NCBI RefSeq assembly: GCF_044324785.1
Contig: NZ_CP172127.1
DNA: 64,000 nucleotides
Origin: Escherichia coli
GTDB taxonomy: Bacteria > Pseudomonadota > Gammaproteobacteria > Enterobacterales > Enterobacteriaceae
Strand: one strand, 5' to 3'
A program made the position numbers and the translations under genes. The notes beneath the pieces were generated by a model that saw only the letters and a list, made by a program, of their open reading frames with translations, was not told where the DNA came from and did not search any database. Shown in pieces: positions 28,013 through 29,108 of this stretch; position 1 is the first letter of the stretch; the number at the start of each line of letters is the position of its first letter.

Positions 28013-28142
28013 GAAATTACACCCTCTAAAGGGAGCTGATCTTAGAGGTCATTGGGAAATATCAGTAAACTCTAACTGGCGAATTACCTTTCGATTTGAA
28101 GGCGAAGACGCAATTCTGGTTGACTATCAGGATTATCATTGA
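28013..28142 (+). pseudogene. higB/RelE-like toxin, C-terminal fragment only
   Basis: KGADLRGHWEISVNSNWRITFRFEGEDAILVDYQDYH matches HigB C-terminal consensus; N-terminus absent (in-frame stop upstream). Confidence 0.5.
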
Positions 28143-28204
28143 GGGATAACTGAACCGCCCCGGGAATCCTGGAGACTAAACTCCCTGATAAAGAGGTAAA
28201 CAGA

Positions 28205-28546
28205 ATGACTAAAAATACTCGTTTTTCCCCCGAAGTCCGTCAGAGGGCGATTCGTATGGTTCTGGAAAGTCAGGGCGAATATGACTCACAGTGGGCGGCA
28301 ATTTGTTCCATTGCCCCAAAGATTGGCTGTACACCGGAGACTCTGCGTGTCTGGGTACGCCAGCATGAGCGGGATACCGGAGGCGGTGATGGCGGGCTCA
28401 CCACCGCTGAACGTCAGCGTCTGAAAGAGCTGGAACGTGAAAATCGTGAACTGCGCCGCATCGTCTATGGAAACGACATTCGTGCTGGATGCTCTGGAGC
28501 AGGCGTTATGGGCCCGTCGACCGTCCGGCACAGTCCATCACAGTGA
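28205..28546 (+). pseudogene. IS629-like transposase OrfA, 3'-disrupted
   Basis: [85 protein letters not shown] then divergent tail. Confidence 0.6.
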
Positions 28547-28853
28547 TAAAGGTTCTCAGTATGTATCGCTGGCCTACACACAGCGGCTTAAGGAAGCCGG
28601 ATTACTGGCATCAACAGGAAGTACTGGTGACTCGTATGACAACGCGATGGCGGAGAGCATCAATGGCCTTTACAAAGCGGAGGTAATACACCGTAAGAGC
28701 TGGAAAAACCGGACAGAAGTGGAGCTGGCCACACTCACGTGGGTGGACTGGTATAACAATCGACGATTGCTGGAAAGGCTGGGCCATATCCCACCGGCAG
28801 AAGCAGAAAAAGCTTATTATGCTTCCATCGGAAACGATGATCTGGCAGCCTGA
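28437..28853 (+). pseudogene. IS629-like transposase OrfB, C-terminal part only
   Basis: [49 protein letters not shown]... DDE-domain C-terminus. Confidence 0.6.
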
Positions 28854-28899
28854 GTTCACAGATAAAACACTCTCCAGGAAACCCGGGGCGGTTCAAACT

Positions 28900-29108
28900 A
28901 TGAGTCGTATTCATAATCCCGCCACTCAGGCGCGGTTCTTCGTGAAGATCTGGGAGATATGTCAGTCACAGACGCTGCCACCGCATTGGGCATTACTCGC
29001 ACGGCGCTTTCCCGGATTCTGAACGAAAAAGCGGGTATTTCTGCGGATATGGCGCTCCGTCTGGAATCAGCACTCGGAACCAGCGCCGAAATGTGGACAG
29101 GTATGTAA
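28900..29108 (+). pseudogene. higA-like HTH antitoxin, frameshifted near 5' end
   Basis: ATG at 28900 is in a different frame from HTH region SRHSGAVLREDLGDMSVTDAATALGITRTALSRILNEKAGISADMALRLESALGTSAEMWTGM. Confidence 0.45.

Follow-up and report, generated by a model that had tools for sequence, protein, structure and literature searches.

A decayed plasmid-type higBA module on an Escherichia coli ICE, with an internally deleted IS629 isoform in its spacer

Introduction

The cargo region of an integrative conjugative element (ICE) inserted at a tRNA-Phe gene of E. coli contains a relic of a higBA toxin-antitoxin module that is divided by a segment derived from an insertion sequence. Which events inactivated this module, was the insertion one of them, and did the insertion sequence lose its interior at this very site? 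We addressed these questions for the copy present in a stretch of 64,000 nucleotides, here called the window. A preliminary description of the locus had given its span as 28013-29108, which is too short: alignment to intact plasmid copies and PGAP annotation show that the higB and higA relics extend it to ~27857-29180. The reading that we hold with high confidence is that the locus is a non-functional remnant of a plasmid-type higBA module residing in the ICE, and that a 745-bp isoform of IS629 was later inserted into its spacer. The locus represents ordinary genome decay, and its pseudogene status is already given in public annotation; in the identical locus of strain APEC E19035, PGAP labels higB as "frameshifted" and higA as "frameshifted; internal stop".

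Results

Both genes of the module are pseudogenes

The features of the two genes are as follows.

27857-28142, + strand: higB pseudogene (RelE/ParE superfamily, Rts1-type HigB), extent according to PGAP in identical genomes (APEC E19035)
27875-28009, + strand: N-terminal higB fragment, a 44-aa ORF starting with GTG (MAFLEHFFETGSTAGIQAKHAVKLRIQLTALNMAKRPDDMSVCT, then stop)
27993-28000, + strand: TGTC-TGTC, the 4-bp tandem duplication that shifts the higB frame; TGTC occurs once in intact plasmid copies
28005-28142, + strand: C-terminal higB fragment (PRWKLHPLKGADLRGHWEISVNSNWRITFRFEGEDAILVDYQDYH, then stop), the part recognised in the preliminary description
28007-28009, + strand: TAG resulting from G>A at 28008, found in the IS-bearing lineage only; TGG in the empty-site strain
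28900-29180, + strand: higA pseudogene, from alignment to intact plasmid higA and a TIGR02607 match
28959-29108, + strand: 49-aa ORF with an internal ATG, corresponding to HigA residues M21-M69 (partial HTH_3), from the ORF list and alignment

Intact E. coli plasmid copies, which are 86-93% identical at the DNA level to the window copy, encode a 93-aa HigB and a 93-aa HigA separated by an 8-bp spacer, and the plasmid HigB aligns end to end (residues 1-93, E = 1e-22) with HigB of P. vulgaris (4MCT/4MCX). The module shares with the Rts1 HigBA system of Proteus vulgaris (4MCT/4MCX) the toxin-first gene order, a spacer of ~8 bp, proteins of ~93 aa and an antitoxin with an Xre-type HTH. It differs from that system in that the window copy is dead: it lacks the native promoter/operator, contains lesions in both genes and has an insertion sequence in its spacer. 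The window HigA, moreover, is closer in sequence to GraA of P. putida and to HigA of P. aeruginosa (6F8S, 6JPI) than to Rts1 HigA.

The preliminary description took HigB to be reduced to its C-terminal ~40 aa. This is incorrect, because the N-terminal two thirds of the toxin are found in another frame (27875-28006), and higB is a near-full-length frameshifted pseudogene (27857/27875-28142). When its frame was repaired, the translation matched profile PF05015 (HigB-like_toxin, length 91, gathering score 27 bits) with 60 bits over positions 7-91 of 91. The pseudogene was broken by the TGTC duplication, which is also present in the empty-site strain L001, by degeneration of its 5' end and by loss of its native promoter region. 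An intact frame, with a start codon and encoding a toxin of ~93 aa, is precluded by the frameshift, by the TAG, by the absence near the 5' end of four codons (RHKG) that intact HigB has in the alignment, and by the lack of a start codon at the position homologous to the intact higB start in alignments to the plasmid copies. The base change that creates the TAG also converts Gly50 to Arg in the downstream HigB frame; this C-terminal frame, which has no ORF of at least 25 aa beginning with a start codon, ends at the higB stop codon (TGA, 28140-28142). A further change, GG>TC, is located at 28071-28072. DNA homology to intact plasmid higB is clear from ~27873-27884 onward. Since the first ~10 nt (27873-27883) align ambiguously with the intact copies, the position of the 5' breakpoint is uncertain; the alignments to intact higBA and IS629 that had been proposed as a check mapped the other breakpoints of the locus. 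The ORF of 337 aa located upstream, which occurs in ~1,000 assemblies, has no match in Pfam or NCBIfam and gives no hint on the origin of this breakpoint.

The higA pseudogene starts with the ATG at 28900 and ends at its native stop codon, TGA 29178-29180, so that the toxin-first "hig" order is preserved. The preliminary description placed the HTH region of higA and its ATG in different frames; we find that this is caused by a 1-bp deletion, one G missing between 28922 and 28923, that shifts the frame after codon 8. The same description overlooked a nonsense codon (CAA>TAA at 29106-29108, Q70*; CAA in intact homologues) and the 72 bp of higA that lie beyond its end coordinate. The repaired HigA translation scored 88.3 bits against TIGR02607 (antidote_HigA, cut-off 47.7; model positions 2-80 of 81) and 39 bits against HTH_3, and together with the PF05015 score of HigB this establishes that both segments belong to toxin-antitoxin families. 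No intact higA frame is present, given the 1-bp deletion, Q70* and the 748 bp (the insertion sequence plus its duplication) that separate higB from higA. The peptide previously predicted as a 52-aa HTH-only product corresponds to the 49-aa ORF listed above, which terminates at the premature TAA; higA homology continues to 29180. One assembly has this ORF among its gene calls, with a PF01381 match.

The spacer contains an internally deleted IS629 isoform

The features of the inserted segment are as follows.

28148-28150, unstranded: left copy of the AAC target-site duplication, in the 9-bp higB-higA spacer
28151-28895, + strand: internally deleted IS629-isoform element of 745 bp, identical to the 1310-bp parent except that IS nt 311-875 are missing
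28151-28175, + strand: left inverted repeat IRL, 25 nt, beginning with the terminal TG
28205-28546, + strand: OrfA' of 113 aa, consisting of 85 native N-terminal residues (HTH_Tnp_1) and a 28-aa out-of-frame tail across the junction
28459-28460, + strand: deletion junction with a 2-bp "CA" microhomology, from comparison with the parent
28461-28853, + strand: C-terminal part of OrfB (OrfB'), covering rve positions 39-102 and positions 252-369 of 369 of the IS3 transposase model
28871-28895, + strand: right inverted repeat IRR, 25 nt, with the terminal CA at its end
28896-28898, unstranded: right copy of the AAC target-site duplication, from comparison with the empty site

In agreement with the preliminary description, the inserted segment separates the higB stop codon from the higA ATG, has IS629-type terminal repeats at both ends and is flanked by a genuine AAC duplication, as a single AAC is present at the empty site of two STEC genomes, 2015C-3121 and STEC2018-553. 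A length of 3-4 bp has been reported for IS629 target duplications (PMC3271280). Compared with the plasmid copies, the spacer also has a 1-bp insertion, a T at 28147. IRL and IRR are complementary at 23 of their 25 positions (92%).

The 745-bp element is exactly identical, with 0 differences, to the insertion sequence of the AR_0085 plasmid from which nt 311-875 (565 bp) have been subtracted. This 1310-bp parent has a gapless alignment, with 94.7% identity over 1310 nt, to the pO157 Sakai element that its depositors labelled IS629; for the two halves of the window element, identity to the same reference is 96.1% and 93.1%. By ISfinder convention, isoforms have at least ~90% nucleotide identity to the reference IS, and parent and both halves all lie within this range. 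Published IS629 sub-types are 4-5% apart (PMC3271280). The element is thus a deleted IS629 isoform and not a full-length IS of a different type; with this, all three family assignments made earlier (HigB-like toxin, HigA antitoxin and IS629-type element) are borne out by profile matches and alignments.

The internal deletion, previously estimated at about 600 bp, measures 565 bp, and neither transposase frame is complete, as had been stated. Lost with the missing segment are the 3' end of orfA, the overlap of orfA with orfB and the ALIL frameshift pseudoknot; OrfB is deprived of its first catalytic Asp, and the LWVADFTY motif (IS nt 771) likewise falls inside this segment. The Rfam ALIL model matches the parent with 116 bits and has no match in the window, and a canonical A-AAA-AAG heptamer is absent from the parent. 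Like IS629 (isoforms IS1203 and IS3411; IS3 family), the element has the same terminal repeats and a 3-bp target duplication. Unlike its 1310-bp parent, which has orfA and orfB with the ALIL frameshift pseudoknot, the 745-bp copy contains no -1 frameshift signal, no OrfAB and no complete DDE core.

Two coding remnants flank the junction. OrfA has 108 aa, of which the last 23 are missing from OrfA'; gene calls in public assemblies include exactly this OrfA' protein in 181 blocks. OrfB' keeps the HSDKGSQY and NAMAES motifs, but its catalytic core is missing the N-terminal third, the rve match beginning at profile position 39 of 102. With these frames, the element is unable to make transposase. 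A second ORF with an rve fragment, seen in the draft assemblies L022 and L029, turned out to be an assembly artefact due to scaffold N-gaps.

The deleted element is present in unrelated contexts

The deletion junction (GAACTGCGCCG-CA-TCGTCTATGG) is present in seven records in its exact form. Besides the ICE locus, the identical junction was found on the 5.7-kb Col-type plasmid pEC332_05 (2 mismatches) and on the metagenome contig SKEZ01001235.1 (100% identity). In these three contexts the deleted element is 99.7-100% identical and the flanks are unrelated; the ICE higBA site is by far its commonest location. The exact junction has no match among GTDB species-representative genomes, and no single-piece match to it was obtained in PLSDB plasmids (2024 release). 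An IS629 described as having a "unique internal deletion" in O55:H7 strain CB9615 derives from a different event, as CB9615 does not contain the exact junction. We found nothing specific in the literature on a non-autonomous or internal-deletion derivative of IS629.

The occurrence of one junction within unrelated flanks indicates that the deleted element is a derivative that has spread between sites. As it has kept both ends and encodes no transposase, it would move only when OrfAB is provided by full-length copies. Full-length relatives of IS629 co-occur in the same genomes, where IS629 is multi-copy, and a disabled IS1203v/IS629 of which only the ends remain responds to OrfAB in trans, as shown for excision (bioRxiv 10.1101/2023.06.07.543989). 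Taken at face value, the comparisons indicate that the 745-bp element behaves as a non-autonomous derivative and is not only a case of in-place decay, and we infer that it would be mobilised in trans. The element may have reached the higBA locus already deleted. Most likely, it would either have come in in this form or have been exported from the ICE locus later.

According to the view of the preliminary description, all decay was local: a full-length IS629 inserted, ~600 bp were subsequently lost in place and higB was cut to ~40 codons. We consider this possible but doubtful. The perfect AAC duplication testifies to a bona fide insertion at the higBA site, and the deletion could have arisen there, since this is its commonest location and all copies at the AAC site are of the deleted form (6 complete genomes and, for the ORF that spans the junction, 181 assembly blocks). 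However, no full-length IS was found at the AAC site among 5,426 genomes, the identical junction in two unrelated contexts shows that the deleted form has spread from site to site and could just as well have been deleted before it arrived, and the truncation of higB is refuted by the presence of its N-terminal two thirds, the break being a 4-bp duplication. Of the notion of layered decay at one locus, the several independent lesions stand; the deletion within the IS need not be local.

Rather unlikely, in our judgement, is that the deletion was spread by homologous recombination or gene conversion between IS629 copies instead of by transposition in trans. The multi-copy state of IS629 in the genomes concerned would favour such exchange, and the bases beside the pEC332_05 and SKEZ01001235.1 copies (GTT/GTA and CCA/CTC) do not form target duplications. 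In addition, the left and right flanks of both extra copies match different backbones, and searches with joined flanks for the corresponding empty sites never found them contiguous in 72,556 plasmids and 5,426 genomes, which is typical of recombination joints. On the other hand, matching duplications accompany only 21 of 47 ordinary IS629 insertions (PMC3271280), so that their absence is weak evidence; a clean 3-bp duplication surrounds the deleted form at the higBA site, and both ends are intact in the derivative, as in constructs that respond to OrfAB in trans.

Spread of a derivative mobilised in trans would resemble that of MITE-like elements, with which the 745-bp element shares intact inverted repeats, the lack of a functional transposase and at least three unrelated flanking contexts. 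It is much larger than typical MITEs, keeps coding fragments and has a target duplication at only one of its three sites. A more far-reaching proposal is that a trans-mobilised "mini-IS629" with active ends circulates in poultry-associated E. coli (on the ICE, a Col-type plasmid and in a metagenome), and that OrfA' modulates the transposition of full-length copies. This proposal is tentative and we would not presently favour it; if it were true, OrfA', having an HTH and a partial leucine zipper, could bind the IS629 ends. That the ends would still be active is suggested by one genome that has lost ~15.8 kb beginning exactly at the right end of the 745-bp element.

The lesions in higB and higA most likely preceded the insertion

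Both empty-site genomes already contain the TGTC duplication, the 1-bp deletion in higA and the TAA. As these lesions occur in strains without the IS, the higBA module was not killed by the IS insertion, and the inactivating lesions most likely predate it, an order based on parsimony. Between the IS-bearing and the empty-site lineages, 6 of 753 flanking positions (0.8%) have diverged; against this, 0 of 745 positions differ between the element and the full-length copy, which suggests that the insertion is recent.

The opposite order, in which the IS insertion was the first inactivating event and the STEC empty sites reflect precise excision promoted by IEE, appears improbable. In STEC that carry IEE, the joint action of IEE and transposase can excise IS629/IS1203v precisely (bioRxiv 10.1101/2023.06.07.543989), and because both empty-site genomes are STEC the empty site could be secondary. 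Two events, insertion and precise excision, would then be needed instead of one, however, and the complete identity of the element to an active-type copy, set against the 0.8% divergence of its flanks, argues that the IS is younger than the split of the lineages, by which time all shared lesions were present.

We therefore retain the reading that point lesions came first and the element later, and propose the following course. A two-gene cassette would first have lost its native promoter/operator region and first codons. Next, higB would have gained the 4-bp tandem duplication, and higA the 1-bp deletion and the nonsense codon at Gln70. Later, the 745-bp element would have entered the 9-bp spacer by the copy-out/paste-in route of the IS3 family, duplicating AAC, and this insertion would have parted the higA ATG from its Shine-Dalgarno sequence.

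Residual function of the remnants

That the 49-aa HTH peptide still acts as an orphan repressor or antitoxin, or the 113-aa OrfA' as a trans-acting modulator of IS629 transposition, is very improbable: both frames are open and are predicted as genes, with matches to HTH_3 or HTH_Tnp_1, OrfA' retains its own upstream IS sequence and strain GF60 has an intact plasmid higBA (88% identity) next to the relic, but the 49-aa ORF lacks HigA residues 1-20 and 70-93 and starts at an internal Met with a GGAG only 2-3 nt upstream, OrfA' has a nonsense tail in place of its last 23 residues, and the strains are too alike to reveal any conservation signal. A consensus promoter scan of positions 27600-29400 yielded no sigma-70-like site, which also speaks against residual expression, as weak negative evidence only. 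We infer from these features of the sequence that the locus probably has no residual function.

Use of the locus

Beyond annotation hygiene the locus is of little interest. It provides a worked example of the decay of an addiction module on an ICE, with point lesions first and the IS later, and illustrates that what looks like an "in-place" deletion in an IS can be a non-autonomous derivative that is spreading. The junction sequence is a handy marker for the ICE lineage and for the mini-IS in poultry-associated E. coli.

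A higBA relic interrupted by an IS629-type element

Positions 27857-29180 hold three nested relics on the plus strand. The features mapped at and next to this locus are:

26318-26581: variable 15-bp tandem repeat array near the relic
26645-26806: IS3-family fragment of 162 bp with 86% identity to IS629-isoform nt 586-747
27993-28000: TGTC tandem duplication causing the higB frameshift (alignment to intact copies)
28148-28150 and 28896-28898: AAC target duplication abutting both IS ends
28151-28895, + strand: IS remnant of 745 bp between the higB and higA relics
29310-29624, - strand: C-terminal piece of a gene for an autotransporter beta-barrel, just 3' of the higA relic; carries a pseudogene annotation

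The higB-like sequence closes at a TGA (28140-28142) left of the IS, and the higA-like ATG is at 28900 on its right. The terminal inverted repeats of the IS remnant, TGAACCGCCCCGGGAATCCTGGAGA and TCTCCAGGAAACCCGGGGCGGTTCA, are 25 nt each and 92% complementary. When the 1.5-kb stretch was compared by megablast with 5,426 complete E. coli genomes, all of it was present in six chromosomes, mostly of chicken/APEC isolates, at 99.7-100% identity. The IS flanks were contiguous, as a 753-bp match, in two STEC chromosomes, 2015C-3121 and STEC2018-553; alignment of these gave the sequence ...GAGGGAT-AAC-TATGAGT..., with one AAC only, which is the exact empty site. The insertion between higB and higA and its AAC duplication, both proposed in the preliminary description, are therefore real. 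A 3-bp duplication agrees with IS629 identity, as IS629 is reported to produce duplications of 3-4 bp (PMC3271280). Only eight of the 5,426 genomes contained the chromosomal higBA relic.

The locus had been described as a layered decay of higBA split by an IS629-type element. The observation is real and this reading is broadly right, but higB was under-read, a nonsense codon in higA was overlooked and the span was drawn too short. In addition, the deletion in the IS need not be local decay, because the deleted derivative has also spread elsewhere. Every component is from a well-known family, and RefSeq already flags them as pseudogenes.

Lesions in higB and higA

Intact higBA relatives with 86-93% DNA identity are present on 34 E. 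coli plasmids, each encoding a HigB of 93 aa and a HigA of 93 aa separated by a spacer of 8 bp. Lesions were mapped by aligning three intact plasmid copies to the window with the IS taken out. According to this alignment higB is near full length, and not limited to the C-terminal ~40 aa as first thought. Clear homology begins at ~27873-27884; the palindromic operator-like sequence and the rest of the plasmid upstream region are missing before it, and the higB relic adjoins the stop of an ORF unrelated to it (337 aa, 26859-27872). The gene lacks four codons (RHKG) as well as a start codon at the homologous position, and is frameshifted by the TGTC duplication. Two further changes are specific to the lineage of the window: G>A at 28008, which reads as TAG in the N-terminal frame and as Gly50>Arg in the true one, and GG>TC at 28071-28072. 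The higB-higA spacer has an additional T at 28147 compared with the plasmid copies. The repaired HigB translation scores 60 bits and covers positions 7-91 of 91 of the HigB-like_toxin profile. Intact E. coli plasmid HigB matches HigB of Rts1 from P. vulgaris (PDB 4MCT/4MCX) end to end (E = 1e-22). On the identical locus RefSeq annotates a RelE/ParE-family toxin pseudogene, "frameshifted", corresponding to 27857-28142.

The frameshift in higA noticed previously was confirmed by alignment to intact plasmid higA: it is a 1-bp deletion, one G being absent between 28922 and 28923, past codon 8. Moreover, CAA>TAA at 29106-29108 truncates HigA at Gln70, and homology runs on to the native TGA at 29178-29180. 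Repaired HigA scores 88.3 bits on TIGR02607 antidote_HigA (cut-off 47.7). The HTH peptide from an internal ATG, put at 52 aa before, corresponds to an ORF of 49 aa (28959-29108) comprising HigA residues 21-69; the region of the first helix and the 24 C-terminal residues are missing. An internal Met codon serves as its ATG, preceded at just 2-3 nt by GGAG. The GAGGGA Shine-Dalgarno sequence of higA overlaps the higB stop and is now parted from the higA ATG by the IS. A search of 27600-29400 for sigma-70-like promoters gave none, against 1.7 expected, which is weak negative evidence.

The 337-aa ORF has no Pfam or NCBIfam match. Hydrophobic segments are predicted at its C-terminus, and public assemblies list the exact protein in 1,039 blocks. 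GF60 carries, besides the dead chromosomal relic, an intact higBA of 88% identity at 1475-2046 of pGF60-C (NZ_CP172188.1), a plasmid of 98 kb that has phage-like genes for a maturation control protein and a tail protein.

Order of events

The empty-site strain already carries the damaged higB 5' end and the TGTC duplication, the extra spacer T and, in higA, both the 1-bp deletion and the TAA. On parsimony, the module would thus have been dead before the IS arrived, and the sequence comparison points to the toxin-antitoxin lesions, not the IS, as what inactivated higBA. The IS relic shows 0/745 differences from a full-length copy and the flanks of the two lineages 6/753, consistent with a recent insertion. 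It is possible that the empty sites are secondary and arose by precise IS excision: both empty-site genomes are STEC, in which precise excision of IS629/IS1203v occurs and depends on IEE and transposase (bioRxiv 10.1101/2023.06.07.543989), but this requires one more event than insertion into an already dead module.

The IS629 derivative and its deletion

The IS relic is identical at every base to the 1310-bp IS of plasmid NZ_CP029742 minus IS nt 311-875. The deletion is 565 bp long, with a 2-bp microhomology, CA, at the junction (28459-28460). The 1310-bp parent shares 94.7% identity, without gaps, with the element labelled IS629 by the depositors of pO157 Sakai, and published IS629 sub-types, including isoforms IS1203 and IS3411, are 4-5% apart (PMC3271280); the original designation "IS629-like" is therefore correct. 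The deletion takes away the final 23 codons of OrfA (108 aa), the overlap of orfA and orfB, and the ALIL frameshift pseudoknot, for which Rfam RF01497 gives 116 bits in the parent and no match in the window. Also gone is the N-terminal portion of the catalytic core of OrfB, with its LWVADFTY motif (IS nt 771). OrfA' is a 113-aa product with 85 native residues and a 28-residue out-of-frame tail. The remaining C-terminal fragment of OrfB aligns with the rve profile from its position 39 on, and with positions 252-369 of 369 of the IS3 transposase model. Reading of the ORFs in the window shows no OrfA-OrfB fusion, because 565 is not divisible by three and leaves the -1 offset of orfB uncompensated.

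Other copies of the deleted element

Single-piece matches to a 120-bp junction-spanning query were counted, and metagenome contigs were scanned for the junction by exact pattern. The query matched seven records only: the six chromosomes that have the whole 1.5-kb stretch, and the 5.7-kb plasmid pEC332_05, which is of Col type, mobilisable and from chicken meat. The copies at other sites are:

pEC332_05 (NZ_AP039434.1), 4980-5714 plus 1-10: complete 745 bp, 2 mismatches
SKEZ01001235.1 (metagenome contig), 12989-13733: 100% identity over exactly 745 bp

Both have flanks unrelated to the window (GTT|...|GTA and CCA|...|CTC, respectively) and lack a target duplication; the SKEZ01001235.1 copy adjoins a type III restriction gene. 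Target duplications were found at only 21 of 47 IS629 sites, so their absence is common (PMC3271280). For both copies the flank on the left belongs to one backbone and that on the right to another, and the collections searched contained no empty site in contiguous form; the flanks appear to be rearrangement joints.

One deletion event followed by spread is the simplest reading of the shared junction, since the 2-bp microhomology makes repeated identical deletion unlikely. Full-length copies, present in every host genome as additional IS matches, could have supplied OrfAB for spread by transposition; recombination between copies is the other possible route. The deletion may either have been born at the ICE locus and then exported, or have been brought in ready-made. 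The 113-aa junction-spanning ORF is present in 181 assembly blocks, all long contigs read being this ICE, and the deleted IS is found at the ICE locus far more often than anywhere else.

In many IS629-like copies on plasmids the query halves lie 671 bp apart, versus the 685 bp that the 1310-bp parent would give, a spacing that suggests an IS629 isoform ~14 bp shorter inside the region deleted here.

The ICE and its neighbourhood

The relics lie within an integrative conjugative element (ICE) at tRNA-Phe (49873-49948), adjoining dicD, dsbD and cutA; its extent is given as window ~1-49950, and also as the right half of the window. The ICE contains TIGR037xx genes typical of such elements, a pilus cluster of type IVB with a PilV shufflon, two integrases, TraI and a UvrD-like helicase. 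It also carries, left of the higBA relic, ardA and a restriction-modification system of type III. The stretch right around the relic is littered with debris. The fragment at 26645-26806 derives from a different IS3-family element and is annotated by RefSeq as an incomplete IS3-family transposase.

In GCA_964052705.1 (extracted loci L019/L026) the match to the window breaks off precisely where the IS ends on the right (L019 position 5037, window 28895); a 533-bp IS21 istB fragment comes next, and beyond it the sequence is that of window 44737-46180 without differences. The resulting loss of about 15.8 kb, which is anchored at the IS relic's end, takes in the higA relic, traF, an integrase and the pilus cluster.

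On both strands the repeat array at 26318-26581 gives rise to spurious ORFs of repetitive sequence (NATQR / ALRCV), and its copy number varies, with indels exactly there among otherwise near-identical genomes. Rfam STAXI RNA (RF01728) gave four matches of 62-69 bits within the ICE, in two adjacent pairs at 14166-14461 and 16468-16773.
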